Source: Leptogorgia sarmentosa (lineage: Eukaryota). From it: a DNA stretch of 64,000 nucleotides. Where the stretch lies: the NCBI GenBank assembly GCA_964658305.1, contig OZ210885.1, positions 4,898,001 through 4,962,000 of the forward strand, written 5' to 3'. The translations under genes were made by a program, and so were the position numbers. The notes under the pieces are model-generated. The model worked only from the letters and a program-made list of their open reading frames with translations, was not told the DNA's origin and searched no databases. Shown piece by piece: positions 11,572 through 59,334 of the stretch (positions are counted from its first letter, which is position 1; each line of letters opens with the position of its first letter).

Positions 11572-13519
11572 GAAAACTTTATTAATAGAACATTTATAGA
11601 TATATACAATTGTAAATCTCACTTCTTGAGGTAACCTACAATTGACTACTTGAATCACTTATACATGCATGGTTATAATCTTATATATGCAAAAATTGTT
11701 AATTATTTATAGAAATAGTTACTTCAAATGTTCATTAGTTCGGGATTTGTCCATTCTTTGTTTCTACAGCAAAATATGTAGTACGTTGATCGGATGGCAA
11801 TAGATATGATTCTTCTGATACAATATTGTTGGTGCGGTTTATCCAGTCCTAACTCATTTAGCATTTTTACGAATGTATGACATTCTTTGTCAAACACCCC
11901 TAGCGAACTGACAGAAAGATTTATGAACTTAACAGATGTAAAGTTTTGATCCAGTTCTGTAATTAGGTTTTTATATTTAGCTTTCTTGCGGTTAACATTG
12001 TTTGTGAGGTTTGATTCAAAGCCTACGGTAAGTTCAACAACGTAGAGGTGTTTGTCCGAAGTGGAGACAAGCAAATCAGGACGGTATTCATTTCCCGTAA
12101 TAGTCGAGGGGCTTTCGAATCCAGGAAGATCAACATTTAATTTGCATTCGTTTAAACTTTGAAAAGTTTTTGCAAGAAAGTTTAGTATGCAATCGTGTCT
12201 CCAAGTAAATCGTTCCAAATAGTGTTGACAACCGGCAGCAACGTGTAGAAGTGATTCAGGGTGTAAGCAGAACGAGCAGTCTGAACTTGATGAAATTCCC
12301 CATCTTGCAAGGTTTTTGCGGGTCGGAAGCGTGTTGTTGATATACCGGATAGTGAAGTTGAAAATGTTTTTGGGCAGTTTGGATTGGCAAGTTGACCAGA
12401 TTGTGTTTGCCTGTGGCAGGGAGTATCTTGATACACTGTTGAAAAATGAGCCTTGAGACGTTAGTTGAGTGGTTAGTTTATTTTCTTGACTGTCACGAAA
12501 TGACTTAATTACTTCCTTGGTGGAGCTGTACTGATCATGTTGGATATTAGTGTGGTTTTTGGTTGATTTCCAGAGGTGGGTTATAGATTCATTGGGAGAT
12601 GATTTCAAACTAGTTCGAATGGTTGTCTGACATTGTGTAAATTTAGTTGAAGGTGGAATTATGTTTAGGCCAAATTTGTTGCTGGTTAGGTAGACGTTAC
12701 TAAGTGTTCCAGAGATCGGAATCTCAAGCCATTTACGGATATATTGCACAAATATAGAGTCCAGGTTTTCTGAGATCCAGGTTTTAGAAACTGATGTAAT
12801 GGTAAGATGCCAGGAAAGTTTTGGTAAGATGTAGCGGCTGTAGAGTAGAATTTTGTTCTTCGGATGTAGTGGCTTTAGATCTATTTCTTTCATTTTATTT
12901 GTTAAGAGCGACATTAGTTCCAACTTATGTTCATTATCCGATATTTCATAATCAAAGTATCGTCCTAAATAGCAGAATGATTTTCCCATTTCAATGACAG
13001 GAATAAGGGAGTTTTTAATAATTAGTTTAGGAAGGTATTGGACGGATTTGGTAAGAGCTTTCTTGATGCCAAAGGTACAACATTTATCAACACGAATAGT
13101 CATGTCAGACCACTGACACCAAATTGCAAATCGGTTTAGTAAATATTGGTTTTCAGATTCTTGACCGGTGATTACGGCTGCGTCGTCTGCGAACTGGAAC
13201 CAGTGGATTGGGTTGAGAAGTTTATATGAGAAACCAAATTGCTGATATTTCTCGGATTTTATGTGTTGGATAAATGTGTTAAAACAAAGGTTAAATAGCA
13301 GTGGGCTGAGGCAGTCACCTTGTAAGACTCCGCGACCAACTTGTATAAATGGTGTGTTGAAATTTGATGTGATTACTGATGTTTTAAAGTTTGTGTAGAG
13401 GCTTTCAATGATAAGTTGAATTTCATCAGGTATGTGATGATAGTTAAGGACAGATTTAATTAGATTATGATGTACTTCACCGAATGCGTTCTTGAGGTCA
13501 AGGAGGGTTATAACTAGAG
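11572..13519 (-). mobile_element. 5'-truncated RLE-type non-LTR retrotransposon (HERO/R4-like); RT, CCHC finger and restriction-like endonuclease in one open frame
   Basis: LDLKNAFG, GVLQGDCLSP, FADD, CSFC...H....C, RHD, RPDL, VELTV..E. The frame is open to the stop at 11724. Flanked by (AAT)n on both sides. Confidence 0.85.
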
Positions 13520-13591
13520 AATAATAATAATTATAATAATAATAATAAGCATTTAATAATAATTTGTACACAATAATAATAATAATAATAA

Positions 13592-16500
13592 TACTACTTA
13601 ATATTTACATATGTATGTTCGTTAAATGATGGTTATAAGTACTATTAATGATTTAAAAAAAAAAATTTTAGTAATAAAATATTATAATAATAAAAAGAAA
13701 TGTCTATCCTAATGGCGCTCATTCGTAAAAATCAAAATAAATAGTAAAATCAATCAAAGTCCCTATCTAATGGCTCCCTCAGTTGCTTCAATTTCAATGT
13801 CAGAATTCTTTAAGTCCCATGAGACCCTCTTAACAGTTCGTGATCCACGAAGACAGATTAGCGCTGATCTCAAAAGAGCGAAGGAAGTTCTTGCACGAAT
13901 CCAAGAGATTGTCTTGGCGTAGTCTTCTCCTTTTTTAATAGAAATTAGCTCGGCTAGACGGCTATGAAACATCCGGCATTCCTTCCCCATTCCACCCGTG
14001 GTCGTAAATACTAGTGGTGTGAAAGTTCCTTGCTCGATATCAAGAACTCTGCTTGCATACTGCCGCTTCTTCTCATTCTCATGCATGTGATAGATTTGTT
14101 GCGGTTCCAGATCTCTATAGCTTTCAGCATTTGGGTGACAAACCCTGACGTCGAAAAAGGCTGATTGCTGAGGCTCCCAAAGTCCACGTGCATGTATATC
14201 CAGTCTGGCATCTCTCGCTGTGTTCGACCCTCTTGTCAACTGCTCACCTGATACATCTTGCAGCACTGGTTCAGTCACGACATCGTTACAAACCATATTT
14301 ATCAACTCCGCTTCCAGATCCCTCAATTCGTTATGTCTCTGAATGACAAACCCCCCTCTCTTACAAATCATGGCGTGATCGACGTTAAACAGTTCCCCGC
14401 ACACGCAGGTAGATGGAAGATCGTCAATTTGCCAGTCATAACGTAGTTTGACTCCGTCCTTAAACTGCCTTTTGTTAAGATTAAATCCTAACTCTTTAAG
14501 AGGCAGCACTGTTAGCCACATCGATGATCCTTTTTCGGCAGCCAATTCTAGTGCGCGTCGAGTCTTCTGAGGTGCGACTTCCTTTATTCCATTGACCTTG
14601 TTTTCATTATCCTTTGCTCTCTCTTCTCTTACCTCTTGCTGTGCTGACGCTATCAGGGAGGGATCTGGTAACTGATGTGCTTGGGACACAATCTGTGTAA
14701 CAAGAGGCGTGGTTACTTTGATTGATGACATGTACTCACGCTGTGCATCGTCACACGGGTTCCCTAGACCCAATCCTCCCAAGCGTACTGGTAACGATAG
14801 TATTTCCCTGTCCAACTGACTACACTGCCGATCTGCAAGAGCAGGGATAAGAATACGTGATATAGCGTTCTCTAATGGCTCAAGCAGATCCTGAATATCT
14901 GGAATGGTTCTGATAAAATACGTCCATCGATGTTTTAGGCCAAACGTATATGCTGCATAGCACGCTTGGGGCTGAACCGCGGCGAACTCGGCTAGTTTCG
15001 TTACTTCACTGATCCAGTTGGACACCTTATCACTTACATAGTCCTCCACATATTCTCGTGAACCAATCGCAGCTCCAAGATGTTTCTGCCCTTGTGTTGT
15101 TACATTCACAGCTGTCTCCTTGAACGCCTCCTTCACGGGATCCTCCTTGTCTGGCTTGGTGATAATCCAGCATTTCTTGGCGTTTGGGAAGTATGGCAAA
15201 TCCGGGCCTATCGTACTCAGAGTGTCCCACCACTTCTTGATATCCGAAACAGAGCCAGCTCCGCTTGCATCGTCTGCAAACCAGCATTGCTTGATTTCAC
15301 ATGCTTCCTGGAGACTAGTAATTAAAGGTTGCATACTTAAGGTGTATAGCCCCATTGCGAGAGGGTCGCCCTGTGTTGTTCCTTCAGCTGAGGGGATTTC
15401 CTGACCTCCGGTGATAAACAGGCGTGATGAAAGTCTATAGGTGTTGATTGCATAGACCGCGATGATCGGACATAGGACCCGGATATTATGCAGTGCCATC
15501 GCTCGGTTTAGTGAGTTGAATGCATTAGACGCATCAATTAACAGCACCGCATCGGTTTCGTCACTCTCAAATATAGTATGCATTGCATGTATGGCGGCTT
15601 CACTTCCAGCTTTCTGTCCCGCGCATAGCTGAAGAGACCCGCTAGCCTCTACAACATCATTCTTAACAACGTTCATTACACACTTTCCCATGATTCGCCG
15701 GATCACCTCGCCCACACCTATTGGCCTAACTGAACCTTCGCCTTTATCAAGTGGGATTAAGCGGCTTGCCACTACTGCTTCTATAGTACTTGGATCAATA
15801 AACTGTGTGCACAGAATCTTGGTCATAGTAGCTATCGCATCACATAAATTAGAAGATGATTTTTTGAAGGACTTGTTAGCCAGCATTCTTCTAAAACCGT
15901 TCGCATCGATGCCGGATGGCCCTCCGGATCCCTTGGTTCACAGCGCAGCTTGTCGGATCATGTCACCGTTAATCTCTGAAAACAGCGACTCTGGTATGGC
16001 ATCATCGATTGGCCCAAAAAGCAGGGAGCCTAATTTTGCTGGTTTTGGATCTGGATGTTTTTCTTTGAGTTGTGCCATTACGTCATCCGTCAAGCCTAGC
16101 ACACCACCACTAGATGTCTCACTCACAAAACGTAACGCTGCTTTGATCTGGCCTTCGAGAACAAGCTTTGCAAATATTTTAGATTTATTGGGCGGGTCTG
16201 ATATTTTCGACTTTCCGATGCGACCTTGAATAAGTCTTCCTTCGCGTAGCAGTTTATGAATTTCACCTTCTTTCCATAGGACAAGTCGCTTAGACAATGC
16301 CTCCACGTGATCTTTTGCCTTTGACTTGGGACCTGGTTTTTGGAGGCCCACGGCGAGAAGAACAAATGCAGCCTTCAGCGAGACATGTTGTTCATCCGAA
16401 CCATTATTCCAGCTATTTATGTGTACCGTCACTTGATCAATAAAGTCACGCCCTACTTTCCCGTAAGGTACAAGAAAAGCATTCTTTCTCCAATTGACAA

Positions 16501-17322: not shown

Positions 17323-19627
17323 TAGCAGTAAGAATTTTGAGACAGTTCGTGGAATTCTAAAAGGAGGGTTTCCCAAGACTCCATGTAATGTGTAAGCAAT
17401 GGGCAGCTGAGTTTAGAGTGACCATAATTTGTTTTCAATGTATTTTAGCGATTAACAAAAACAACACCTTTTGATGGGAAAAGAGAATCCTGTTTTTCTT
17501 GCATACACTGGTTCACATTATATGCTGTTGACCAGACCATGCAAATTAGATGAAGAATGTATGAACACTCCAGACCAATCAGAATATCATTGTAATTATG
17601 CTTTAATATTGACACTTATTAGAAAATGTTGCAAATGTTTTTTGAATCAATTGCTACTAACAAATGTATGTTTATACTGTAAATATGGTAACAATCTTTG
17701 TAGTTGCTGAGAAGCATAAAGGTGCACAGCAATTTTTTATGTCTGGTCCAGAAGAGTATCAGCCTGGTGTGAGCATTTTCAAAGGAAGAAAAATACAGGT
17801 GTGACTCAAAACAAAACGAAAATGTATGCCTAGTAAACTTAGGGACATGCCAGATACTGCTTTACCAGATACTGGATAGAACCAGATTGTAGTCTCTCGG
17901 ATACTGGTTGAGAAAATAACTGGATACTGGTTCTATTAGTGACAGACATATTAAAATATAATGAAAAATAATATTAAAATGTGGCATATTGATATAGTTT
18001 TTTTTATCATGGCAATGAGGTTTAAGATTAGAATTGAGTATTATTATAAATGATATTTATTTACCCATTATTATAAAGTAATTAAAGCCATTAATTTGGG
18101 CTTAATTTTCAATAGGTAAGGAAGCTTCTATCCAGTGTACACTACTATGAGATCACTGAATTAAAGCACTAACCAGTAATGATAAGACCAGGACTGGTAA
18201 TACTTTACTGAATAGCATAATTCCACCAGATATTGGATCTGGCACATCCCTACGAGTAATGCAGACAGACTGTATGCAAAAATAGAGTGCAAAATAATGT
18301 ACTGCAGCCTGGTTACCATAATTATATACAGTAGTCATGCAAGCACAATAGGCACATGACACACTCCCGTGATAGTAAAAGTCATTTTTCGTTGTTATTT
18401 TAGCTGGACAAAGACCCCCCGTCTCCCATATGTATAAGCTCTGGTTCTGAACAAAGTGAATGTGTACGAGAGGAGAAAGTTCCACATGTTAACCAGGTAT
18501 TTGGGCCCTATTATTACTAGCACCTTTCCTTGTTATTTAATTTATGGATGTTCTGTCCATAATGTGTTTGCTGGTTATCATAAAGTAATCTACATCTGAC
18601 AGTATATAGGATTTTTTTCTGGAAGGCAGTTGTAATTCAGCATTAAATTTGGATGCCAATAGCTGGGTTTCATTAGGTTATGTGAGGAGTTGAGACAAAG
18701 GCAGATGGTGGTCAAATAATGAGATTCAAAAAATATTCTAATAAGATTCTTTTGTATATCTGACCATCATGTGCACTGATGACATTTGATTTTTTTAAAA
18801 GAATTCAGACACAAAGAATGGGCTTCCTCTCCATGTCAGTAGTAGTTCAGAAAATGACATAGCACTTAGAAAACCAAGTCAAAGAGAAAAAGAAGAAAAT
18901 CAGAGGTTTGTTTCAGCCTTACTTCAGTTAAATTGTATGCCCCTTCCCTAATTTCAACTGGATAGGGTTAGGAAATTGTATACAATGCTCTTGGGCAACA
19001 GATGATTCATTCTCAACCAGCATGTACTGAAAATAGTGCAGCTGTAATATGCTCCAAATTGCAATTTAAACTGAAAATTTGAATTATTTTATGTTCCAAG
19101 GATACAGTAGAAGAGTTAGTCCTATCCATGAGTGGTCTGAGTTCAAATGACAACTCCCCAATCAAAAAGAGAAGGGAGGAAACCTTAAAGGGTAATGGAA
19201 GTGAAAAGAAGCTGTTTTCTGATGATGAGTAAGTAAATGCTGTTAAATATGAAATAAAATTAATCAAATCTTATTGATTAAATATTACAGAGAAGACTTT
19301 TAGTAACAAAGACTGCAGTCTAGTACACTGTTTTAAATTGTGGTACAGTAATAGGCTGTGCTATACTATATATCACAGTTTGATACAAGTGATTGCCACA
19401 TTAAGTTTACAGAGTTCTAAATAATTGTATATATGTGATATATTGTGATGAATATTGTGAATGAGACTGTAAATATCAAGTCTGTTTAATGTACATTGTA
19501 ATAAAATGTACTGTGCTGCACGTCAGTTTCTAAATGTTTGGCAGTATGTGCTGCAGTTAGATGATTCTTTCCGAAATATCGTATATCAGGCCTGAATAAT
19601 ATATAATTATTTCCATTTCTTTATAGA

Positions 19628-22038
19628 GATGTCATTTTTCTCCATAAAGAGGGAAAACGGTCATATCTAAACCAAGATGCTATCGATAAATTGCCAACGT
19701 TATCAACAGCTAAGGTGCCTGCATTACCCAATGGCCCATCAAAATACAAGGTAGAATACAACCAAAAAGATCCTCTTGCCCCAGTGTCCGATAACTGGAA
19801 TTGGGGGCGTACCCAACCATGTAATAGAAAAGGATTTTGTAATGGAGGGAGACGGACTCTACAGATCTGCAAAGGCTCTCTTGAATGTTGTAATTCACAG
19901 TGTATATACAAAAAGATCCACCGAGAAACCAACAAAGTAGATTTTACGATGAGTAAGAAATGTATCCACTGCAAGGCGAATGCTTTACCCATAGAATGTT
20001 GTGCAAGAAAGTACGTTGAACATGATCGTTGCCATAAGGACATGACAGTGGTATATATCGGTACCCATAACTGCTCACCAAGGACTCAAGAGAAAAAGCC
20101 AGAAAAGGAAAAACTAGAAGATTATTTGAAAACTCGGCCTACAAGTACAACAAAGCAAATCCAAGTGGAGAAAATCAGGGAAGCAATGCTTAGTGGAAAA
20201 GGTGTGAAGGAAATTGAGGATGTTGCTGACGAGTACAGTACCTTAAATCTGTTATTAACGACGAAAAGTTGCCAGGCGGATCTGACCTGGAGGCAATACG
20301 TTTACTTAAGGATGACTTCTTAAAACGAAACCTTGATAACAACCTAATACTCGAAGTTGGTGATAACTACGTTATTTTGTCCTCTGAAGAAAAGTTGCGT
20401 CTTGCAGCATTAATAACGATTGGTGTAGTAAATGAACCTGTTAGTCTTGATGGTTGTGAAAGTATTGCAAAAGGTTTCACTGCAGTCGAAATGACAACTT
20501 ACTTTCCACTTCTTCGCCGCAATATGAAGCTTGTTACTTTATTTGCTCCTAAACCAGGGGAAAATTCTGAGAATGTTGCAAAAATGGTCGAAGTCTTTGA
20601 CAGTGCCGTCAACAAAATCCTTCCCGCAATTGCAGAGGAATATGGACTTGTTGCGTCTGAGTTTGCGAACAGAGGGTTAGATCCACCAGCGTATGTTGGA
20701 GACGAGGGAGGTGCACTCTGGAAAGGACTGTGTAAAGTAAAAGGTACTTGCGTTAAGAATAAGACAATTTCAGATGAATTTCATGTAAAACAGGACATAC
20801 GAAGACACTGCAAGTACTTTAAAACAAAAACGGACCAGAAAAAGTTTGAAACGATCATGAACGATGCACTGAACGCAGCAACATCGATCGAAGCGAAAGA
20901 AGCAGAAAATAAGCTGGAAAAACTTATACAAAGTCGATCAACTAACTTATCGAAAATGACGAACTTTAAGAAGTGGTGGTGGAGGCGCAGAATATGATGG
21001 CAAAAATGGTGCCGAGCCAGTTGCATAACAAACGCGTCATCCGCTGAAGTGGCAAACGCCACTTCTGTCTCTTGCTTGGGTTACAGAAAGCGACTTCTTG
21101 ATGTTATTACCACTGACTGTTCTGCCGCTGTATTGGAAGCTGCAGAGGTCAGACGACAAAAGAGTGGCCTGAAGACTGTTGGTAAAGGCCCAACTGCCGC
21201 AGACAGATCTGAAAAAGAGGGGAAAATGCTACATTTTGACAGGGAACGCTCAGCATCTGCAGTACAATTTGTGAATGAAAACGCAGAAAGGTACAAGTCG
21301 TTGTCCGATATTGAAGACGTCGAAGACGAATACCACGTAAACACTCGAGATACTCATAGAGCAGACAAATCGAAGAAAGGTTCACACCAACATTCACATC
21401 AAAGAGCTGAGATTCACACCAACAAGAGAAATTTACAATTTTTCAAGAAACGCGTTGAGGGCATCACAATGGATGTCGTGGAATATAACAGCAGCATGAC
21501 ACAATTTCACTTCAAATTACTTGATACTATGGGCTATTTACAGGACATAAAAATCTCGAAGGAATCTGTCACTTGTTCGTCCTCTTTTTGCACCAACAAA
21601 TGTCATCACGCCACATGGCTATTACACAACATTCTACATTTAGGGAAAGATGAACCTTTGCTTTATAAAAAGCGCTATTCTGCTGCTGAATGGGAAACTA
21701 TTTTGCAGTCCTTTCCAGAAAACGTGACTCTAGCGCAACTCCCGACACGTAAAGAGCAAAGCTACAGAGTTGAACACCGTAATTCGATAGTGGATGCGAA
21801 GTGTGCTGCATGTAAAGCTGTTCTACGTGATGGTGATCTTCAAGTCACAACAGACGGACCTTACAGAACGATAATGCGGCACTGGATAACGAGGACATTC
21901 TTTTTTTGTCCCAAACTACGATGCATTTCCGCTATGCCGCGTAATTCTTTTATTCAACCATACAATCCGTCTACGATGAGTCTTCAGTTTGACTCGAATT
22001 TAAGTCTCGAGCAAAAGCAACTGCTTGGTGTTTCATAG
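19628..22038 (+). pseudogene. MULE transposase main exon: GCM/WRKY-like zinc domain, DDE core, SWIM finger, PARP-type zinc finger; one frameshift (~20240) and one stop (20995-20997)
   Basis: WNWG...CKGSLEC...C..C...C.ARK...YIGTHNC; VSLDG / VGDEGG / DEFH / WWW / AEVAN; VTCSSSFCTNKCHH; YRVE...AKCAACK...GDL. Confidence 0.75.
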
Positions 22039-27479: not shown

Positions 27480-28505
27480 CCAGGCCATCACTTAACTTCA
27501 TTTTACAAATATGACAGACTGTTCAAAGATTGGCAGTGAGCGGAACTAATTTGTACTCACTGGAGAAGCAAACGTTTTTCTCGAGACATCTTATTCGCCT
27601 TTATCAGGCAAGAGTACAACACAATGGCTGCAATTCTGCACGGAAAACTCAATGATGGTGATTTTGATGCTGTCAATGACATTCCTAATCCTACACAATG
27701 TCACTGATATATGCAGTTTTTAGATCTTGCTGTTTATTACCACAAATTTATTCTGGGTTTTTCCTCAATCCTGCAGGGCCATTATTACAATTGGCGCAAA
27801 AGGTGACGTGTTATATTTGGACCAATGACCATTTTGAGATATCCTGATTTTGGCAAAGAATTTGTTTTGCAAATATGCATCTGATCATGGCACTGGGATG
27901 TTTTTGTCACAACTTGATGATTTAGGAACTGAGAAAGTTATTGCCTATGTGTCCAATGCACGTTCGCCTCCATAACAGAAATATTCAACAACCAAGAAAG
28001 GAGAATTTGCTGTTGTCTTTGGCACAGCTCACTTCCGCATATATCACTTAGGTCACCATTTCAAACTAACTACTGACCATAATGCTGCCTTACGCTGGCT
28101 ACACACTATGGACGCTAGAGGTCGTTTAGCACAATGGACTATGACGGGCGAGACTGACAGGAGTTTAATTTCTCAGTCACCCATCGTACTGGCCGCACTC
28201 GTAACAATGCCGGCCCACTGTCTCGCCCGGTGCCAACTAATTCATCAAATTCTATCAAAAACCATCTTCGTCTCAATACATGTCAAGCTATACAAGCGTT
28301 CGTCAAGCTAGAGAGCAGTAAACCCCTTATAGTTGATCCAGATGGTCAGTTATTGACTGCTCCTGCTCCTCATAGCTCTACTTGCCCTAAATTTCAAGAA
28401 GCCCATCACAAGATTAGCACAATAACATTAAATCCTACAATGAATCTCGGGGATAGCCAACAAACTGACCCACATCTGGCATATATTCTTGACATGAAAA
28501 AATTA
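27480..28505 (+). mobile_element. Degenerate Gypsy pol remnant (RNase H region)
   Basis: Across frameshifts: EKVIAY...YSTTK.E..AVVFG..HFR.Y..G.HFKL.TDH..LRWL..MDARGRLAQW. Confidence 0.7.
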
Positions 28506-29365
28506 CCTAAACCAAATTCACAAGTTTTATCATGTTCATGTTTAAATTAGATGATGCTAATTTAGATATTTCAAGACTGTCTTTTAAAGGCTCTATTTTC
28601 ATCACACCGCTTTCATCCTGTAAATTATTCACTTGTTCAGGAGTATCGTTTATACAATATTTTTTTAGATGGTTTAGATCATTTGTCAGGTTGAATGTTT
28701 TATTCAAAAATTTTGCTTGGAGAAATTTCACTTCAGCCTCAATTTTACTCAGTTAAGTGAGTTTGTCATTAATAAATTCACATTCAGTGCTACACAATAT
28801 TTGCTTTAGCATGATCACCATTATTTGATGCATCGATATCAAGTGGTATCAATCGATATGGTTGCCACTTTACACATTGATTTATGCTGCTCTGTCATAT
28901 AATTTACCTCATTTGGACTGCCATTAGCTGTGATCCATTTACTTTTAAACTGAGGACAAATCAATTCACCAGGATCTCGTGGTGAATGATCTAAGAAGAA
29001 GAAGGTGAATGATCTAAGAAGAAGAAGAAGAATGATCTATCTAGAAGTTTGTCAATTCCTTAAGGACTGTTCACAGGAGAGATTTAGCTGGTGATTTCCA
29101 GTGCGATTTTCTCCTTTTGACGGATGTTAAAGAGTAAGCCAATCAGGAATGTTCTGTTCATGTTGAGGAAGTATGCACTCATGTAATATGAAAATAGTCA
29201 CGAAATGAAATTGTACAGATAATAATAAATCAAGACATATTGTGTTCCTTTTAAAATGTCTAAAATGTACATGCAGAAAGAGTTTCTTACTTGTAAACAT
29301 TTCTGCTATAGTAACTGAGACCAGAACGTTTTTCATCATATTGGCAAAAATACACTTTGAACTCT

Positions 29366-30373
29366 ATGGCATTGCAATACAACTATCCCTTACACTCGCT
29401 TAATACCTTCGGTATATCTTCTTATGCTGAATGTTTTGCAACTTTTCAATCCATAGATGAATTACAACAATTATTAGTGCGAGCCAAGTACCCTATTGTG
29501 ATTTTGGGTGGTGGTAGTAATATACTATTGACTCAAGATGTAAAAGGTACTGTTTTGAAAAATGAAATAAATGGTATTTCAATTGTTGAAGAAGATCATA
29601 AAAGCATAACAGTTAAAGTAGGAGGTGGTGTTGTATGGCAAGATTTAGTGATGTGGAGCATAGAAAATAATTTTGGTGGCATTGAAAACTTATCGCTTAT
29701 TCCTGGTAGTGTGGGTGCAGCAGCTGTGCAAAATATTGGGGCTTATGGAATAGAAATAACATCTGTTTTTAAGGAATTAGAAGCTGTAAATATCGCAACT
29801 AACAGCATAAAAAATTTCAGTAAAGCAGACTGCGAGTTTGGTTATCGTAACTCTATCTTTAAAAGCAAATTGAAAGGGCAATATGTGATCTGCAATGTAA
29901 CTTTCCAACTAAATAAGATACACGAATTCAACACCACTTATCCTTGTATTGAAGAGGAGTTAAAAGCTATGGGTGTTGAGCCTAGTTTACAAAATATTAG
30001 CCAAGCTGTAATTAATATAAGACAATGCAAATTACCTGATCCGAAGGAGATTGGTAATAGTGGTAGTTTCTTCAAAAATCCTACTGTTCCCAATGAACAA
30101 TTTGAAACTTTAAAAACCAAATTCCCCAACATGGTGGGCTACTCCAGTGGCAAAGGCGAAACAAAAGTAGCTGCTGGATGGCTAATCGAACAAGCAGGTT
30201 GGAAAGGTTATCATAATAATAAAGCTGCTGGAGTACATAAAAAACATGCTTTGGTACTAGTTAATTATGGTAATGCTAAAGGTGAGGATATTCTGAATTT
30301 ATCAAAAGAAATACAAGAATCTGTATTGAAAAAATTTGGTATTGATTTACAATCTGAGGTGAATATAATTTAA
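29366..30373 (+). CDS. murB: UDP-N-acetylenolpyruvoylglucosamine reductase (MurB), type I, Bacteroidota-like; intact, intronless, 335 aa
   Basis: LNTFGI, ILGGGSNILL (FAD binding), GIENLSLIPGSVGA..VQNIGAYG, CEFGYRNSIFK (catalytic Arg), KLPDP..IGNSGSFFKNP (catalytic Ser), AAGWLIE, ALVLVN, C-terminal EVNII (catalytic Glu). First ATG at 29366. Confidence 0.96.
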   Translation: MALQYNYPLHSLNTFGISSYAECFATFQSIDELQQLLVRAKYPIVILGGGSNILLTQDVKGTVLKNEINGISIVEEDHKSITVKVGGGVVWQDLVMWSIENNFGGIENLSLIPGSVGAAAVQNIGAYGIEITSVFKELEAVNIATNSIKNFSKADCEFGYRNSIFKSKLKGQYVICNVTFQLNKIHEFNTTYPCIEEELKAMGVEPSLQNISQAVINIRQCKLPDPKEIGNSGSFFKNPTVPNEQFETLKTKFPNMVGYSSGKGETKVAAGWLIEQAGWKGYHNNKAAGVHKKHALVLVNYGNAKGEDILNLSKEIQESVLKKFGIDLQSEVNII

Positions 30374-30876
30374 CAACTATGAATATAAATTTAGTTGTCA
30401 ACAATTGAAAAAGTTTTATCATATCAAAACTTTAGAAAAATAGCATTAAAATCTCTATATAAATTATTATCTTGCAGTGTTATATTTTTACTTGGCTTGG
30501 ATTCCACCACATCCACAGCAAAATGGTCTGCAAATATATGGCACTGGCCAGTACACCGACAACAGAGCAATCCTAACCTCAGCCTTGTAGCTTCAGTGTA
30601 GCTTCACAAATGAATCTACTAGGGGTAGACCTTGTGCCTTTGAATAAATTGAACTTGAAGATGAAAATTTGACAACACAATTACAACACTTTAATGAACA
30701 GATAACAGGATACATATACAGGTCTGTGTAGGCTTGATATTAGATTTCTTGAGCTTCGTTTGGGCCTACAGGGGTGATGGCTCTTTTGATCGCGTGAGGG
30801 TTTCGTAGCCGTTTTTATACTAGAGACGCATAATGTGTCTGGACGAACTTGGGCAAGAAGTTATTATTCGTATTGG

Positions 30877-31045
30877 TAATAGTATGGTTTCGAGTGCAAT
30901 TTGGAAAACATGCACGAGTGAGTTTTTCAAAGACATTCAAAATTGCACAAGTCCGAAGGACGAGTGCAATTTGAATGTCTTTGAAAAATTCACGAGTGTA
31001 TGTTTTTCCAAATTGAACAATTAATAATATACATGAAAAAAATTC
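30877..31045. repeat. Crypton-type terminal palindrome plus 24-bp terminal motif
   Basis: Long imperfect hairpin centred on AATTGCACAAGTCCGAAGGACGAGTGCAATT. 31022-31045 is the exact reverse complement of 36588-36611. Confidence 0.7.
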
Positions 31046-31079: not shown

Positions 31080-31965
31080 TTACAGCGATCGGCATGCGCA
31101 ATTATCCAGGCAACTGGTCATGTAAGTAACAACCTTTAAGCCACATACTGAATATTATGTTCTAGACTGTTAGGTGCAACGGGATTGTGTCTATTAATTA
31201 ATGGTATATGCTAAACCACTGTAATAAAAATGTCTCATGGTTTTCATGGCCAAATGCATATTGTACTTGATCATCAACTGCAGCATTCATGGTTTTTCAG
31301 TGAGCTTGAGTTATGTTCCTGGAGGTTATACATCTCAAATTTTGTATAGGGTGAATTGCTGAAACAACTTAAACGAAGGCTCGGCAATGTAAGGCCAGTC
31401 AAGAAGCCTAGAGGGAGAAAGAGAGTAAATGTGGGGAATATTAATGATGATGATGGATCAAAGAGAACAAAAGCAGACGTGGCTGTACCAGCAGATCTCG
31501 GAGGTGCAGGTACAAGAAGAAGAATCCCTGTAACTAGTTGTAACTGCCCTCCGCTCACCAACACAGTTTCGTTGCACACACAGCTTTATTCAGTTATTCT
31601 GATAGCCACGGAATGGTATACTAATGAGCTTTTTAGCGTTCACTGACAATTCGCTTTTAAAGTTCCAGATTATTGGGATGACATGGCAGAGGATGTATTG
31701 AAAATAAAGTTAACTCAAAGGAGTGAAGAATATAAGAAAGTGGAAAATGCATTCAAAGCGTCTGCCTCAAATAGAATCATCTGCATTGAAAGAATACAGA
31801 ACAAAGTTCTGTATAAATTATTCAATGTCAAAAGCAAAGCCATGGAGGAAAAATATGGCAGCGATTTTCCCGGAAAGGAACTGTGGCTATTCCATGGTAC
31901 CTCGTGTGATAATGTTGAGAAAATTAATGCTGGTGGATTGAACAGAAGCTTTGCAGGAAAAAATG
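31080..31965 (+). CDS. Partial spliced gene for a PARP-family mono-ADP-ribosyltransferase (exons 31080-31121 tentative, 31350-31509, 31663-31965)
   Basis: AG/GT boundaries with compatible phases (0, 1). The last exon encodes VPDYWDDM...SEEYKKV..AF...IERIQN...LFHGT...INAGGLNRSFAGKN, the N-terminal half of a PARP10/14/15-like catalytic domain. I did not find the next exon. Confidence 0.8.
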
Positions 31966-32231: not shown

Positions 32232-32726
32232 CAGTAATAGCGTAGTTGACCGGGTTTCTTTTGTTTCTACTGGGTCAATGGACCAATTGCATAATAAACA
32301 AAATTTTTAAAAGTATCGAAATAGTACAATTTATAACAATAGCGTGAAAGAGCGTCCCAAAATTAATAAAATGGCAAAGTTTGGGTGTGAAATGTTGTAA
32401 AATACGGAAAATATAACCGTGCGAAATTGGCAAATTTGTATACTTTTGTATTACGTGCGAAATGAAGTAACTAATTTAGTTAGCAATTCACGCACCTAAT
32501 ACAAAAGTATACAAATTTTCCCTACTTTGCACGGTTATATATTCCGTATTTTACAACATTTCGCACCCAAACTAATTCATTGTTATGAATTGTACTATTT
32601 CGATTTTTTTAAAATTTTTGTCTATTATGCAATTGGTCCATTACTAAGTTCTAATACTTAGTTCTAATCGCCCGCTCGGTTATGGATGGTCAAACATGCA
32701 AGTAATTACATTCTACACAACAACAA
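32232..32726. mobile_element. Second (inverted, truncated) copy of the 8342-8550 MITE family, interrupted by another MITE
   Basis: CAGTAATAGCGTAGTTGACC... and CGGTTATGGATGGTCAAACATGCAAGTAATTACATTCTACACAACAACAA match the reverse complement of 8403-8550. Confidence 0.8.
32280..32639. mobile_element. 360-bp near-fully palindromic MITE, GGACC...GGTCC, with AT target duplication (ISL2EU-like)
   Basis: The arms are reverse complements over most of their length. AT lies on both sides. The empty site TCAATTACT is seen in the paralogous MITE at ~8387-8395. Confidence 0.8.
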
Positions 32727-35250
32727 TGATTTTACCATAGTTAGGAAAGACAGACCAACTCGAAGAGGAGGAGGTGTGGCCGTATATATAAGAGAATCAC
32801 TTCCTTTTAAAATTCGTTCAGATTTTTATAACCCGGAATATGAATGTCTGTGGATTACTCTTCGACCAAAATGGCTTCCACGAAAAATTTCAAAACTTGC
32901 ACTTGCGTGTGTATATTTGCCACCGTCGATGAATACCGAAGCAGTCGAAAGTTTTTATGAATATTGCTGTTATTGTTATGATTCTCTTATTAGCGAGAGC
33001 CCAAATACATCAATTATTATTACTGGGGATTTTAATCCCGTAAGTAATGGATTTCAGGAAAGAGTCCTTAAAAATCATTGTAAGTTAAAACAAGTAATCA
33101 AAACACCAACTAGAGGTAAAGCAATTCTAGACCTAATCCTGACCAATGCACATTCGTTTTATGAAACACCAGTATCTATGGCACCGATTGGCTGTTCAGA
33201 CCATAGCGCTATTATGTGGAATGCGAAAGAACAAGTTCAAGGTAAAAATGAGATAAAAAAGATTACAGTGAGACCCATTAAAGAAACGAGGTTGCGCTTG
33301 TTTGAAGAATGTATCGGTCTAGAGACATGGTCAGCGGTTTATGAGGCCCCGTGTATTAACACCAAAGTGAACGCCTTGTTATCGATTACTATTGCAATGA
33401 TTGATAACTGTTTTCCAACAAAAATTGTCAAGGTCCATAAAGATGACAAACCTTTTATGACTGGGAGGATTAAACAAATGATATCGAACAGAAATAAAAT
33501 GTACCAACATGGGAGAATGGAAGAATACAGATCGCTTCTTAACAAAATTACCTTAGAAATTCGAAAAGTGAAACAGAAATATTACAGTGAAAAAATCAAA
33601 CCTGCTCATTGTTCCAATTCAAAGCAATGGTGGAAAAATATAAAAAACATTACTGGACAGGGTAAACAGGAATTTATTCTAAATAGCCCACAGACTGATA
33701 CTCCACTAAACTCAAGAGACACAGCTAATTTGATGAACGAATATTTTACTAGTCTTACTAGTGATTACCCGGAAGTACACGATAGCTGGTTTAATGTTGG
33801 AATGGAAGAACAATCACCGAATATAACCGCAGACAGCATAGCAGATAAGTTAAGTAAACTTGCCCCGAATAAAGCAAGTGGTCCGTTCGATCCGAATGTA
33901 AAGATAATAAAAACATTTGCAAGATACTTCGCTGAGCCGTTAAGTTACATCTTTAACGAATCATTTACATGTAGAGTATTCCCAGAAATTTGGAAAATTT
34001 CGAGGGTGTGTGGGATTCCTAAAAGTAAACCTTGTTCCAGCGTAGACCTCTTAAGACCTATTTCATTAACGAGTACACTATCTAAGATACAAGAATCATA
34101 TGTTAACGACTGGATTTATGAGGATGTTTATCATAAAATCAGTAGCAGTCAATTTGGCGGTCTGCCTGGAACATCCACAATACATGCGTTGATTTATTTG
34201 TTACATAAATGGCATATGGCAATGGAAAGCCCCCAAAGAATTGTACGTATTACGTTTCTTGATTTCCGAAAGGCATTTGACTTGATCAATCATAATGTGC
34301 TGCTTGAAAATTTTATGCAAATCGGCGTTCGTCTGGTTGTGGTTGGTTGGTTTGCATCATATCTTTATAACAGATCACAAGTAACATCTTTCCATGGAGA
34401 ACAGTCTGATTGTAGAACAATCAAGGGAGGCGTTCCACAAGGGAGTAAGTTGGGTCCTATTGCGTTTATAATAAAAATAAACCAATTACCAATGTCTATT
34501 ATACCCAATAACCAAGATCAAACATGTAATGCCGTAGAAGACCAGGACGTAGCGATGTTTATGGATGACACAACATTATCGGAAGTAATCAATGTCAGTG
34601 ACCATTCAGGTGGTATCTCTATTGGTAATACTCAAATGAACGTTGACAAGGTGGTACAGTTTGCAAAGGACGAAGGAATGGAACTTAATTATAAAAAGTG
34701 TATGGAAATGATTATTGATTTTAGGAAGAATATATCCCCTATACCCCCAATTTATGTTGGTGGTCATAATGTTTCCCGAACGAAGTCATATAAGTTACTG
34801 GGAATATGGTTAGATTGTGATCTTAAATGGAATACTAATACCGAATATATTATAAAGAAAGCGACCAAGCGTCTGTATTTACTAAAGATGTTGAAGAGTT
34901 ATGGTGCCCCGATGGATGATTTGTTAGCATTTTACTGTTCAGTAATTCGTCCTATTCTAGAATATGGTGGAGAGATTTGGAACGGAGGTTTAACCCAAGA
35001 GCAGAAAAAGAGCATTGAACGAATTCAAAAACGAGTGCTTAGAATAATATACCCAAACTTAGACTACGATCAAGCATTAACTGAGACAAAATTGCAAACT
35101 TTGGAAGAACGTAGAGACGAATTATGTGTATGTTTAATCACAAAAATGCTGGAACCAAACCACAAACTTCATAGCCTCTTAGCAAAGAAATTAAAAGACA
35201 TTAGGCAAAAAGAAACAAGAACTAGCAATCAGAAGTTATATAATTTCCCT
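32727..35250 (+). mobile_element. CR1-group LINE ORF2 (APE + RT), open frame of ~840 codons but clipped at both ends
   Basis: RKDR...GGGV, VYLPP, GDFN, LDLILTN, SDH, LRPISLT, DFRKAFD, GVPQGSKLGP, FMDDTT. Confidence 0.9.
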
Positions 35251-36611
35251 TTTCAAATGCCGTTTGAGTGGATTGATCACAGGTGAGGTATTGTGATTGT
35301 AAACGTTGAATGCGATTGAGAAATTGACATCTGGGAAAACTTTGTACTGGAAACAGACATGGTGGCCGATGCTTTTCCTCCTTTCCCTCTTCTCGAAATA
35401 GCCCACGGAAGACTTCACTGCTCGACTTCGTCCGCTTCGTCATAGTCGTCTAAAGACTGTATGTTTCGATGACCTGTAACTTTGGCAATGGCATACCTCT
35501 CTAGATTGGATTTCTTGTTAACCACTGTTTTACGAGCACTGTGGTTGGAAAATCTTTTCTCGCTTGTTTCAAGAGTTGTTCCAGCGATAATGCATTTCAT
35601 CATTCAGTTGATCTTATTGACTCCTATGGGCTGAACTTTGTACCAAGTTGTACCACTTTGCTGCATAGTTGAAGGTCGTCGACGTATGAATTCTCGAAAT
35701 AGTGCTACGGGACATCTTTCACCACCAGTTTGAAACATTTTTGGCTGAAAGGATCTTGATTTAGCATTCAGTCCTGCCTGCCTGGTCTTTGTTGGCCCTT
35801 CTGGGTACTCGACGAATTCAAGACCGTCGTCTCCTTTGAGAATACGAAAGTCATCTAGCCTCTTTCCATGATGATCTTGTCTACCCCGCAGCCCAAAATG
35901 CTGCGTGTTTGAAGCCACCACATCGTTTGAATCAATGCGTCTGGGCTTTCTTGACCAAATTTACCGGTTTTTCAAAGAATTTCTTCTTCAGCCGAAACTT
36001 GCCTTGCCTTGTTGGGCCGCTTCCCCAGACCAGCTTTACGAAGTTGTTTGGCTTTTCCTTCAAGCACTTGTTTGGACGAGGAAAATTCGCTGTCTCTTAT
36101 GATAGATAGGTCGTAACCCTTGTCCTTCAAGTGCCTATCAAGTGCCGTCAGCATAACCTTCAAGCTATCCGGCTCATAGTCATAAAAGCACTCAAGTAAA
36201 ATATTCAGCTCCTCCGGCGGAATGTCATGAATTTCTTGCTCAATTTCTTTCTCAGCGCACCATTTTCTCCATACACTTTGCCAGAAAAGGATACTTTTTG
36301 TTGTATTTTCCTTTTTCCGAGCTGTTTTTCAACTCCTCTATTAAGCTGTCTGTTGCGAAAGAAAATCTTCTGCCCGGAGCGGCAGCCATTTTTTTCACAA
36401 TAATTCACATTTTGTTATTGTCCGCCAGAAACGGCTTAATCTGATTGGCTAGCTTTGAAATTTGAGCCAATCTGAAAGCATAAACATCTAAAGAAATTTG
36501 CACTGAATTTTCTTTTTTGGTGCTGAATTTGCTATTTTGGCACTGTATTTCTTTAAAATTGCACTGCTCTTGGCCAATGAAAATCGAGAATTTTTTTCAT
36601 GTATATTATTA
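35251..36611 (-). mobile_element. Crypton DNA transposon, tyrosine recombinase (DUF3504-like) pseudogene and one terminus
   Basis: YEPDSLKVML.ALDRHL, KAKQLRKAGLGKRPN, HFGLRGRQDH, KTRQAG, RCPV, NHSARKT, VTGHRNIQSLDDY, i.e. the R-H-R-H-Y catalytic set. Confidence 0.88.
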
Positions 36612-41805: not shown

Positions 41806-44800
41806 TGGCTTCGAAGGAAACACCGAAAAAAGCTTACGGATCCAAGACAACTATAGATCCCAAATCCTGTCTTCTCTGTCGAAGTATTGGTGATTCGAGT
41901 CATCGGACAAATATTTTCAAATCTGGGAATCGGGAGTTGCTAAAGATTGACGAGCATTTGTATGGCCATGCTTTGCGCAAAGATACAAGATTGCCTTCGC
42001 TTGTGAACCTATGGACTTTCGTACCGTGATTTCTAAAATGCAGCAAGAATTTCAGGAAAGCCATACAGGAGAAGTTCGGGTGAAACGATGCATAGAGATT
42101 TCTCCTTCGATTCAAAAACCTTCGAAAGCGCAATCGGTCAGGGCAGCTGTCACTGTCTCCGAACACTCTTCTAGTTCTACCAGAACTCGTCTGGATTTTG
42201 GTTCAACCGCATCTATTGTTAGTGTGGATTTATCGGCAGCCATCGGAGGTCTCCATGTTCAGGTTAGTCTGTTGATTATTGATCTCCTTTAATCCGGTTG
42301 CGTCTTGGCGCAAAACATTCTGATTATTCCCTTGTCAAGGATCATTATGATGTGCAAGCCTTAAATACACGAACTTCACAAACTGATAAAATATTAAAAC
42401 ATAACAATGTTTGACAGTTCGTAGGTTCAGGTGTAGTGACTGTAGAGTTAAAAATGCTTGATAGTGATTATTATTGTGTACATATAAATATAATGCTACA
42501 AAATATGTTTGGTGTGGTGAATATTGACTGTGTGCAGACAAAGTTATGCACAGTTTCACACTGTCTTTACAATTTATGTGCAAAACAAGTTTTACTTTTA
42601 TTACTTAGAGTACCAAAACCCTAAAGCAAAGTGCGGAAAAAGAAGGCAACCTGCTTGAAGTAGCAAACCATGAGCTCATAGAGATTGCAAGACAGGGTAA
42701 ACCATCTGTACTGAGAAATAGGTCTTATGGTGGCTTGTGCGAAGACAATTGGATGGATGAAGTAAGGAAAGAGCTCATGACCAGGTGCCCCACTGTTGCA
42801 AACATCCTGTCAACTTTACTTGATTGCCACATTACACAACCCGGGAAGAGACTTCCACCAATGTGCTTGTTGTATGGGGTTATCATGTTTATACGCTGCC
42901 AATATTTGAGCCGAATTCAACGAATCAACACTGTACTCTTGATAGAAGGCAAAGCATCTGCTAATGTAAGTTTTATGTATGTAGAAAATTAAAACTCTAT
43001 CATCAGAGTAAAATAGTGTAGCATTAGGCAGCATAGGAAAGCAAATGCCAGGGTTCACTTAGCGGAGTCTAATTGGGTTTATTTGTTTTTTAAGTTGGTG
43101 AACCACATGAACAAATATGGTATTTGCTTGAGTCATTCCAATAAGTACCCTGTGCTTGATGACATTGGCAATCATTTTTTGGATCATGCTGTTGAGCTGG
43201 TCAAAGCTGGAAATAAATTTGTCTATGTTGTGGATAACATAGACTGGGAAGAAAGGGTGCACGACATGAGATCCAGCCATCAGAACAAAAGTGTTCATGC
43301 AGTCGCCACCAGTGTGGTCTTCACAAGAGTTCCAAGTAACAAGTTGCCTGATGAAGGTCCACAAAATGATGTGAAAACTTGTGACTTTAAAGGACTAGTT
43401 GATATGGACAGCGAAGCAATGAGCAAGATTAAAGATCGTTACAAAATCCTTGTAGCCAAAATTCTCCTGGAGAAGTTTGCAGTATTTTCCGATGTAAGAT
43501 CACTGTTATCTGTCACAACAGAATGTGAATATGCTGATTTGACAAGTGAAAAGTCAGAGATAGTCACTCTTCCCGTTTTGATGAAGGATGAAAAAAAAAT
43601 ACAGTGATTGTGTGGATGTCCTTGACCAGTTGGAACAGTGGACTGATGAAATTTATCAAGCTAGTGGACTTTGCAACAAGGACACAGTGTTATCTACTCC
43701 CCCACCTTTAACTGGAACCCACTTGCATCCTGATCAACCAAGTTCCCATGTTCCACCAGTTGTGTTCGATAATGATCCTTTGAAAGGCATAAAGATTCCC
43801 TGCTTTGGTGATGAATTGACCAGAGTAAGGTTTGCTGGTGCAAGAGACTTGCGTGCTGGTTGCCATAATGCGAAACAACGCCTTGACCACCTGTACCCTT
43901 ATAGAATTGTCGGTTGGCACACAAAAAGGAGTTTCTTAAAGGTACTTAACTCAAGCTGTGGTGAAAGTGGGTGGTGTGTTCAGGAATAGTGTTACCATTA
44001 CTGTAACTTTGTATGCCATTATGTAAATGTAATCTTGTTTATGTTTTTTCTAGTCTATGTTTAAAAGGCTTTACAAGAGTTCAGGTAGAGAAAAAGGTAC
44101 CGTGAGATACTTCAGAGAAGCTCTCAATAGATGCAATGTTACTCTTGACGTTAAACATTATGAAGATTGCGAGCAACTGTTCATGAGTATTGGTCGTTGC
44201 TACCTTGTTGAAGCTCTTCTCGACTTTTTTGGCATAGAGAACATCGATGCAACACCAGTAAGAAACAACGAATTTCTTTCCCGTAGTGTGAGTTGCGAAG
44301 AAAAAAAGATTGCCCTGGAAGAAATGTTAGCAAGTTTTGTTGCAGAATACCTTATACCTGAAACATTGGATTTGGATAGTAACGAAGATGAAGGCAGAGA
44401 CGGTGTTAATAATTATTCGCCCAATCTATTGAGGTCATACATGATTTTGCTGGATTACAAAGATGCAGTATCAAGTGGAAATGGAGAACATTTGGCATTG
44501 ATTCATAAACAAATGATCCCATATTTCTTCTCTGTTTCTTATAATGCTTATGCCATCGAGATGTTAGTAAGTACCATGCAGAATGAGGTTGCTTTATCAC
44601 CTGCAGAAGCTCATCACTGCAAATGGGCAGCATTGGCAAATTGGAAGGGTGGAAAGAACAAGAACATTGAAATTGACCTTCTGCAAGAAAATCGGAATAG
44701 AGATCTGAAAGGGTTAATTAAATCGATGGGAGGAAATAAAACAGAAAAGGCTATCAATAGAGCAAGTAAAGCTGCTGGAGGAGTGAGGAAGATTGTTGAC

Positions 44801-45112
44801 ACATTTGAACAAGAAGTGTCAATCAGAAGAAAATCTTCATCACATTCTCACAAATCCAGCATTGAAGATGAAAAAATGATCAGTCGTGACCTATCAACAC
44901 TGAAGCCATTCACAATGATTTCGGGGAGAGCACATGCATCATTTTTGGATGTTTCGTCTGATCCTCTTCACCATTTGGATGAAGAAATGTTTTCAGCATG
45001 GTTGGAGAGGCATCAGAAAAACCTGTCACTGCATTTTCCCACAGTCGAATTTCAAGCTTCTGAATCTGATGAGGACATAGCCTGTGCTAATGAGGACATT
45101 GAAGATGAGTAG
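41806..45112 (+). pseudogene. Academ transposase (DUF6589-like), 4 exons (~41806-42262, 42611-42965, ~43098-43941, ~44054-45112), with small frameshifts
   Basis: VVDNIDW...HDMR..HQNKSVH, GDELTRVRF..A, GWH, YAIE, NWKGG..KNIEIDLLQE..NR..K. GT-AG introns. Confidence 0.85.
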
Positions 45113-45503
45113 TTTCAGTATATGCTACTCGCAGTAAGAACAAAACCAACTTACACTGCTTGTGTATGGGTCAATTCTAACCCTTAACTCATGTTCTAAT
45201 CCTAAGTATAGTAATGGTTCCAGTCTGTAAATATTGTCTCATACTTTAAATTTTTGAGAAATCTTATAAACATTTTCCAAAGTCAAACAGTTTTTAATAC
45301 ATGTAATTTTTCAATCTTGTTCTATTATAACAGTGTTCTAATAGTAATATGAATAGTAGTATGAATAGTGTAATATTTAATTAGTAACATGTAGTAACAA
45401 TAACAAATAATAGTAGTAATTTACTACCAAATAATATAAGGTAAATAGAATGGTAATAATTTGACCATTCTCTTTTAAGGACATCAAAAATATTTAAATA
45501 ATC

Positions 45504-47069
45504 TTACTTGTTGCAAGTAGTACAATCACAGTGCAACAAACAGAAACTACAGCAAGTATGTCCTGGAACAATTGGTTGTAAATATTTTTCTTCAGTATCC
45601 ATGGCCACCAACAAAAATCTTCTAAGACATCTGTCATCCAATTTGCAGAATGTTCTCATGATATCGTCCATGCCAACTTTATTCTTAGCAATATCCCTAT
45701 TACTATAATAAAGAAGAGCAGATGCTGGTTTCCCATCGCGTCCCGCACGACCAGTTTCCTGTGAATAGGCCTGAATCTTGTAAGGTGGGGTGATGTGAAC
45801 AACATGCCAAATGCCCTTGATATCAACACCCATTCCCAATGCGACAGTTGCAAATATGACTCGAATCACACTTTGCTCTGCGCATAGCTGCTTCATGATT
45901 TCATCTTTCATATCATCTGTTTGTCGAGAGTGAAATTGCCCAAACAAACGATTATGGGGGATTGGTGGTGATCCCTCAGGAAAATCGACTGTGACCCAGA
46001 ACTGATTCAAACAGTTTGTATGCAAAACCACACCATTTTAGTGGTAGGTATACAATTGTCAAGGGGTAGTTTATATGTTCTTCAAGCAAACGGTCTGCCA
46101 TAGGAGATAAAATTGCTGTTAAGGAGTCAATGTCCTGACCAGTTCGTTTCTGCTTATAATAGGTGATGTTTTGACGATCAGGATTACCAATGATTTCAGC
46201 ACAGTTTCTCAGGCCCAATGAAGTTTTAATTGCCTCCCTATCACTTCTACTTGCAGTAGCTGTCATTGCCAATATGGGTGAATTTGAAAATGTTGCAGAA
46301 ACAACAGCCAAATTCCCATAATCAATTCGGAAGTCTTGACCCCTATAATGGTTTAATAGAAAATATGGATGTCAGCTTTCATTACCACTATTGTAGATTA
46401 ATATAAATGCGAATAATTTGGGGGTATTTTATATGTTTAAGTATTAAATATCTAAGGCAGTTATCAGACTTACCATTCTAAAATACAATGAGCTTCGTCA
46501 ATCACTACAGCACAAACATTATCTTGATATGGCTTTGACTGCATCATTTTCCGGCCATATTTACTCGAGACTAGGAACTCAGGATGTGCAAACACGATGT
46601 TATATTGCCCCTTTTCCAATTTCTCTTTGTCACTGAACTGGAAGTTGCAAGCAACATGAGTATCTTCCTGTTCATCCTCAGGATCACTCGAAATCGAATC
46701 CTGATCACCAGCTTCTCTCGTCGATGTAGAACATTTCATACCAACTGCAGCAGCTTCAATCCCCAGTGAATTCAGGCGATTAATGTGATCCTTGATAAGT
46801 GCGTTTAAAGGGGATACCACGATTACAATTGAAGTAATTTTGCTTATAGAAAAGCCATTCTTTCTCGCACATAACAGCGCTGGTAGTAGAAAGAATATCA
46901 ATGACTTCCCATATCCAGTTGGCAACACCGCAAGAGTATCCCGCTGAAGAAAAATACTTTCCAAGCAAATAACTTGTTTGGGCTTGAAAATAATTTGGTT
47001 GAAAAAACTACTCCGAACAGCAAACTCTAAACACGACAAGAACGACCAGCACTTCGAATTTTTCAACAT
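45504..47069 (-). pseudogene. RecQ-like SF2 helicase of AcademH, 2 exons, frameshift near 45980
   Basis: LPTGYGKS, VSPLNALI, DEAHC..EW|G.DFR, MTAT, ATVALGMGVD, QETGRAGRDG, C-terminal CCxxC zinc site. Confidence 0.92.
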
Positions 47070-47733
47070 GGCTATAATGAATTATGAATATCTCGCGCGT
47101 GAGTCAAGTGTCAAATTATCCTACCCGGGCACGGGAAAAAATTGTCACATGAACCACGTGACCAACCAATGCCAGGGTCTTTCCGAAGCGGGACGGGTAG
47201 CAGAGGTAAGAGCCTGGGTACGAGGTTGGCCCATAACCTGCCCCATGGTTTATCTGTTTTCCTTTTCTTGTAACTTTGCCGGAATTAGAAGTGCGTTTTA
47301 GAAACTTGCTTACGCATGGTGCCATATTTTTCGGGCTGTTACCGATGACAATTACAGTTTCATCACAAGTGTTGGGATGACTTGTAGATACCCAAGGTTT
47401 ATTTTCTTTCGCCGGAATAACAATGGCCACAGCATCAGCATCCTTTTTATTTTCTGGTTCCCATTCCTCGCCCGTTTTTGGTCCCCAAATATCCATGTAC
47501 TCATGGTAGCCATATATGAATGATTCTACTTTACAAGTCTCCTTAATAGCTAACATTAGACTGTTACCATACAAAATCGTAAAAGGAGACAACTGGTGAT
47601 GGAATTCTTATCATGTTTTATCTGATTAAAATGTGAGAGATAAGATTGTCACCGACATTTTTAGTTGATATGAACACTTTGGCTACATCCGATATTTTAA
47701 TATTTAGGCCATAGTCAAATGCAAAATTTGAGC

Positions 47734-59300: not shown

Positions 59301-59334
59301 TCTTCTTTCTTTTTTTTATAAATAAAAATAATAA

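Follow-up and report, generated by a model that had tools for sequence, protein, structure and literature searches.

An intact bacterial murB gene, carried on a segment of bacterial DNA, is integrated into the nuclear genome of an octocoral, Leptogorgia sarmentosa. The transfer is real and apparently unreported, and there is good sequence evidence that the gene was retained while its former bacterial neighbours decayed. The donor is assigned by similarity (70–73% identity) to a small-genome family of Flavobacteriales. The gene was analysed within a 64-kb stretch of DNA, referred to below as the window, and the features around it are collected in Table 1.

Table 1. Features of the bacterial insert and its host surroundings (window coordinates).
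Feature	Position	Strand	Basis
Gypsy-type RT_RNaseH remnant	27976–28308		Pfam
High-copy host repeat left of the insert	29093–29135		Contig depth summed for X1: 76,760 at its bin, ~100 in flanks
Ten initial codons of the donor's divergent gene for a GT4 glycosyltransferase, truncated at the left host junction	29310–29339	−	blastn/tblastn to family loci; Pfam on bacterial gene
Remnant of divergent intergenic region, ~34 bp deleted	29340–29365		Comparison with 18 family loci
Intact murB ORF, type I MurB, 335 aa	29366–30373	+	ORF translation, family profiles, Pfam, structure model
AT-rich spacer, 127 nt; no convincing bacterial match	30374–30500		Alignment to family loci
First 16 nt of donor tRNA-Leu(TAG) gene and upstream promoter region; remainder of tRNA lost	30501–30539	−	37/39 nt identical to family locus L069; tRNA calls in family loci
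Frameshifted flavin-reductase gene scrap, from codon ~27; right end approximate (30593–30627)	30537–30620	+	Local alignment; Pfam Flavin_Reduct on bacterial gene
Multi-copy host repeat right of the insert, AATAAA at 30643	30640–30726		Contig depth
Single orphan PARP14-like catalytic exon, AG/GT ends	31663–31965	+	Pfam, homologue mapping

Integration in the animal genome

Assembled contigs were mapped from four runs (X1, X3, X5 and X6) belonging to two studies and two organism labels, X6 bearing the second label. Fifteen runs were listed, none of them catalogued as RNA, of which 10 carry part of the stretch and six carry at least half of its words; runs X7–X10 (share 0.10–0.21) were excluded. 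Contigs of all four runs cover murB. The left junction (~29310) is bridged by contigs of X1, X3 and X5 and the right one (~30620) by contigs of X1, X3 and X6, so that each junction is bridged in three of the four runs. A single X1 contig (29101–30769) connects the high-copy host repeat, by way of murB, with the host repeat that follows. The depth of the X1 contigs was 84–91 over murB and 84–100 over the unique flanks, depth here not being copy number. These results bear out the integration proposed in the initial annotation.

Relative to the window, the alleles recovered show SNPs and a 16-nt indel. This indel lies directly 3′ of the murB stop codon and separates the alleles, with a length of 16 nt in runs X1 and X3 and of 14 nt as listed in X6. 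Three further murB alleles are known as proteins, on short JGI/ENA contigs, and nonsynonymous alleles segregate (Q57R, T145N, C194G and K293T). A chimeric assembly or contaminant DNA is highly improbable: the mapped contigs derive from short reads and none spans the whole 6 kb, those of X5 and X6 leave parts of the ORF uncovered, and the window may itself derive from one of the two studies, but independent assemblies from two studies and two organism labels link murB to host repeats at identical places, the alleles differ, and the bacterial neighbour genes are broken in a way seen in none of the 20 matching family genomes.

The gene had been placed initially between a decayed Gypsy remnant and spliced PARP exons. 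The Gypsy-type RT_RNaseH remnant was recovered, whereas only a single PARP exon was found: mapping of five homologues of 954–1606 aa (the gene encodes ~1600 aa) gave no other PARP exon in the 64 kb. The best named relatives of this exon are octocoral proteins from Dendronephthya, Xenia and Paramuricea (57–62%), which points to an octocoral as the likely host. A position of murB inside a PARP gene was rejected, only one exon having been found, and as a single orphan exon this neighbour is no sign of an active host gene. Contigs of the PARP exon show 15–19 differences at about three times the flank depth, which suggests several dispersed copies.

The neighbourhood is transposon debris, and neither a host gene nor a clear promoter was found in it by the Pfam scan of ORFs and the signal search. 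Among 45 further ORFs in the window, 13 gave Pfam matches, to reverse transcriptase, aspartyl protease, transposase, helicase, OB or DUF families. An open LINE-type ORF of 872 aa with endonuclease-like and reverse transcriptase regions occupies positions 32668–35286, and additional long reverse transcriptase frames are found at 11724–13604 and 13763–15937. Pieces of a DUF6589 ORF lie opposite broken DEAD/Helicase_C pieces at 42609–47081, apparently as a single transposon-like unit. Three successive open frames (238, 255 and 346 aa) that contain Cys/His-rich motifs and are unmatched in Pfam were observed at 19607–22038, and broken frames with DUF3987 and OB-fold matches at 58890–59593 and 62728–63030 (minus strand). 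Palindromic high-copy host repeats are present at 30900–31011 (42-nt arms) and 32277–32642 (nested arms of 64, 60 and 46 nt), with depths of 200–450 times those of the flanks. A tandem 23-nt repeat at 28981–29056 is one unit short in the X1 and X3 contigs.

Anatomy and origin of the insert

Comparison with donor-family loci showed that the bacterial segment exceeds the ORF and extends over about 1.3 kb (~29310–30620). The initial annotation had described murB as standing alone, with no other bacterial ORF, operon or RNA gene in the window. No further bacterial ORF was in fact detected by Pfam or by a tblastx comparison between the window and 109 bacterial loci, which gave four short matches outside the insert, and no RNA gene was found in the window by ARAGORN or by Rfam at the gathering score; weak Rfam matches at 30895–31018 were rejected, being a palindromic host repeat instead. 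The description has nevertheless to be amended, as decayed scraps of two neighbour genes and of a tRNA-Leu gene flank murB, with the order and orientation of the donor retained.

On the left side, the conserved intergenic core up to the murB start codon measures 21 nt, compared with 52–57 nt in all 18 family loci, and the resulting deletion of ~34 bp evidently took most of the bacterial promoter region of murB. For this intergenic remnant, TAnnTTTG was taken by us to be the promoter motif. On the right side, a deletion of ~178 bp joins the tRNA promoter to the flavin-reductase scrap, leaving 39 nt where nine loci from eight genomes have 215–218. The flavin-reductase scrap, which has two frameshifting deletions, was recognized by local alignment (49–64 against shuffle maxima of 39–47, in nine of nine loci). 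Judging from this content, the insert is of genomic and not of mRNA origin, since a retrocopied mRNA would lack the divergent gene start and the convergent tRNA promoter. Within the donor family, the stretch from murB to tRNA-Leu varies by genome from a few dozen bases to about 4 kb, in the manner of an insertion hotspot beside the tRNA (loci L060–L077 and L110–L119).

The closest non-self protein showed 73% identity among 8000 full-length proteins scored, and no orthologue above 72% was present among the 120 matches listed of 1779 short proteins; these searches covered lengths up to 587 aa. When metagenome and genome contigs were scanned with the single protein, the relatives returned were all at 30–56%, and an ESM Atlas search returned bacterial MurB clusters only. 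Those neighbours that have names bear the labels Flavobacteriales, Flavobacteriia or Bacteroidota, and some come from Tara. Among 401 genomes of the order, the best matches fell in one family with genomes of 0.9–2.1 Mb (up to 71% protein and 74% DNA identity). In a quick tree of 53 rows, computed without a clade test and with animal MurBs left out, the coral gene falls inside a clade (27 rows, SH-aLRT 99) that belongs to one Flavobacteriales family. The Bacteroidota origin suggested at first was thus confirmed and narrowed to this family, which has Tara-labelled members and looks free-living in type. The GC content of murB (34%) is within the family range of 30–40%, and its branch length in the quick tree is 0.33, compared with 0.28–0.47 for single-lineage relatives. 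A viral vector was considered and rejected, with no relatives among viral contigs (one pattern match, not confirmed).

The murB product and selection on the gene

The reading frame is free of stop codons, as initially noted, and intronless. The product scored 420.9 bits with NCBIfam PRK00046 (MurB; cut-off 277) and 230.5 bits with TIGR00179 (cut-off 144.5), and Pfam identified FAD_binding_4 and MurB_C domains. The start Met corresponds to that of the bacterial orthologues, relative to which no N-terminal extension was found. The FAD-binding and catalytic motifs first reported are present: all nine catalytic and NADP-contact residues known from Pseudomonas aeruginosa (PMC3689657, in the available text) are kept, namely Y127, R161, Y192, K222, S234, N238, Y259, K267 and E331, Y192 being that of the Tyr loop. 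The AlphaFold model (pLDDT 89) superimposes on 4jay with a TM of 0.90. In fold, FAD motif, Tyr loop and named contacts the protein therefore resembles type I MurB (EC 1.3.1.98; E. coli 1MBB/2MBR, P. aeruginosa 4JAY). It differs in an extra residue near 286, encoded by one in-frame codon absent from all 106 bacterial sequences read, in Pro120Ala, Gly193Pro and Gln294His, and in that its gene lies in an animal nucleus without its promoter. Position 294 was mapped through the 1mbb alignment to E. coli Gln288, a substrate-diphosphate contact; among 141 distant MurBs it is Gln in 106 and His in 33.

The flanks and the ORF have fared differently. In the flanks, six of 66 family-invariant sites are changed, compared with 0–1 in leave-one-out bacteria; one of these changes is shared with a more remote member of the family, and CpG transitions account for two. 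Five fixed indels and one polymorphic indel were counted in the flanks, against the one in-frame codon in the 1008-bp ORF (P 0.0007–0.025 by length). With neutral clocks set from the flanks (6/66, 5/66 and 3/63 sites), the probability of an intact frame with no unseen change was 1e-6 to 3e-3 under all settings tried, a statistic on which the choice of the locus for being intact has a bearing.

The product differs at eight of 148 clade-conserved columns, the bacterial mean being 2.1 and the maximum 6 (101 comparators; the count excludes P0098, which has 17 deviations and a garbled C-terminus, and D286K, an alignment effect of the insertion). Constraint on murB is evidently loosened, since these changes exceed the bacterial mean and maximum. 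All eight are to residues found in 5–56 of the 141 distant MurBs, a set in which 58% of single-base changes made at random would have no counterpart. None of 20,000 simulations of this substitution filter reached the observed score, and P was 0.0023 without the three mildest changes. Clustering of the conserved-column changes near ligand residues was not significant (P 0.12–0.14).

Other measures were less informative. Branch dN/dS was 0.047 vs. 0.062 (P 0.41), with saturation (dS about 2) making the bacterial and host phases inseparable. The X1 and window alleles differ by two nonsynonymous and three synonymous changes (P 0.064, not significant). Most alleles encode Gly194, and the window allele carries Cys194, a residue unseen in the 141 distant MurBs. 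The CpG o/e of murB is 0.39, the second lowest of 21 orthologous genes, one bacterium being lower.

The contrast of indels and sites between flanks and ORF, together with the substitution filter, is in agreement with the selection suggested in the initial annotation. We consider it likely that murB has been under purifying selection, and infer from the same contrast that this probably acted after its transfer into the animal. The post-transfer timing is open to doubt because the transfer might be recent and the decay of the flanks might have taken place before it, in a degenerating symbiont.

Possible roles and relation to known transfers

In the sequence of events proposed here, a ~1.3-kb fragment of a Flavobacteriales chromosome would have entered the nuclear genome of the octocoral host, where murB was kept and its neighbours decayed. 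The gene would be transcribed from host signals, because its bacterial promoter region is deleted. The candidate signals nearby are weak and consist of a splice acceptor AG at 29310–29311, on the left junction, and the AATAAA of the right-hand repeat. There is no ATG between this acceptor and the murB start; its pyrimidine tract is moderate, outside the eight most pyrimidine-rich of 48 upstream AGs. The product is expected to be cytosolic because it has no added N-terminus.

MurB acts by a ping-pong mechanism in which NADPH reduces FAD and FADH2 then reduces the enolpyruvyl group at the same site (PMC3689657, in the available text). The reading that we favour, tentatively and in the knowledge that it may well be wrong, is that the coral-kept murB encodes a predicted cytosolic NADPH/FAD reductase performing one repurposed reduction step. 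To our knowledge, animals have no MurA and hence no normal MurB substrate, and a single repurposed reduction is favoured because a lone murB without MurA has no obvious substrate. Electrons from the NADPH-to-FAD half-reaction would then pass to a different activated double bond, to a quinone or to oxygen; enolpyruvyl-UDP-GlcNAc released by bacteria would be an alternative acceptor. The identity of the acceptor is the least sure part of the proposal, and no paper on an oxidase activity of MurB was found in the literature. The altered sites include the Tyr loop (191 and 193) and H294, which replaces a Gln touching the sugar nucleotide and not NADP. Since the NADP contacts are all kept while the changes fall on the Tyr loop and this Gln, they weakly hint at a functional shift; H294 is no proof of a new substrate, because His is natural at this position in distant MurBs.

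That murB was kept for its original reaction is rather unlikely, although it is the chief alternative. The coral would make UDP-MurNAc either with a murA elsewhere in its genome or from substrate supplied by a murB-less bacterial partner, in the manner of mealybugs. All catalytic residues and the entire substrate channel are kept, and all changes are compatible with MurB. No second mur gene was found in the 64-kb window by the Pfam ORF scan or tblastx, the product has no targeting extension, and the donor family appears free-living. We also know of no organelle-like bacterial endosymbiont of octocorals, which counts against this reading. In the mealybug Planococcus citri, murA–F and ddlB are host-acquired transfers (PMC5664097), and the mosaic pathway works, with MurF localized in the symbiont (PMC6838666); against this precedent stands the caution, in the available text of the latter, that gene presence does not predict function. 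Unlikely, too, is a domesticated peptidoglycan-synthesis enzyme with which the octocoral would produce UDP-N-acetylmuramate, by itself or together with a bacterium.

A low probability is likewise given to murB being a non-functional passenger, either because the flanks had decayed earlier in a degenerating symbiont in which murB was still essential and the transfer was recent, or because a neutral insert kept its ORF by luck. The event appears lineage-restricted, as alleles differ by ~0.5% and searches of full-length and short proteins gave no orthologue above 73%. The segregating nonsynonymous alleles and the pure transposon landscape without a host gene would also suit a passenger, and selection on the ORF could entirely predate the transfer. 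However, the branch length and GC content reported above, both within the ranges of the family, give no sign of symbiont-type erosion, and a living bacterium would have had to lose the murB promoter region and tRNA-Leu. Two of the flank changes are of the CpG type, and CpG transitions are expected in methylated animal DNA. Neutral survival has a probability of at most 3e-3 under the flank-based age.

Retention of murB for a non-catalytic task in innate immunity, the binding or sensing of muramyl or nucleotide-sugar ligands, is very unlikely: it would make MurA unnecessary and would suit the intact substrate channel, but a pure binder would not need the proton donor, FAD motif and NADP-specific contacts that are all kept, and the locus shows no signalling domain or fusion (forms up to 587 aa).

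Among the closest precedents, the P. citri genome resembles that of the coral in carrying bacterial mur genes, including murB, in an animal nucleus (PMC5664097, PMC6838666). According to the available text of these reports, the mealybug has a whole set (murA–F, ddlB) that complements a nested endosymbiont, with function shown, while in the coral one gene is seen and is known from sequence; it comes, moreover, from a marine donor of apparently free-living type and lies in a cnidarian without a known symbiont of this kind. The insert described in Montipora capitata (PMC6385260, in the available text) is likewise lineage-specific, intronless bacterial genomic DNA with animal flanks and even coverage, but it is ~4 kb long, proteobacterial and recent, with four genes, all weakly expressed. 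The murB insert is in a more aged condition: three neighbours have been destroyed and a single gene has survived.

Catalogues of horizontal transfer in corals list 41 events (PMC4878875) and 126 events, 20 of them octocoral-only (bioRxiv 10.64898/2026.05.06.723128). As far as their available text goes, the coral murB resembles these bacteria-to-anthozoan transfers, which often involve single-step enzymes of stress or detoxification. The terms murB, peptidoglycan and UDP-N-acetyl are absent from the main texts of both and from three supplements of the former; Table S6 of the latter may include murB. Literature searches turned up no mention of a coral or other cnidarian murB.

In mealybugs, the described case of host-encoded mur genes, these serve an endosymbiont of the nested kind. 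Were a cnidarian to keep murB, a gene from the middle of the pathway, then either muramate synthesis would be divided between coral and bacterium, or MurB would have another use, of a single step, in animal cells. If the UDP-N-acetylmuramate reading were true, this would be a host-symbiont mosaic cell-wall pathway outside insects. The locus is in addition a readable record of domestication, in which the donor gene order persists as scraps and thereby provides an internal neutral clock beside the spared gene.
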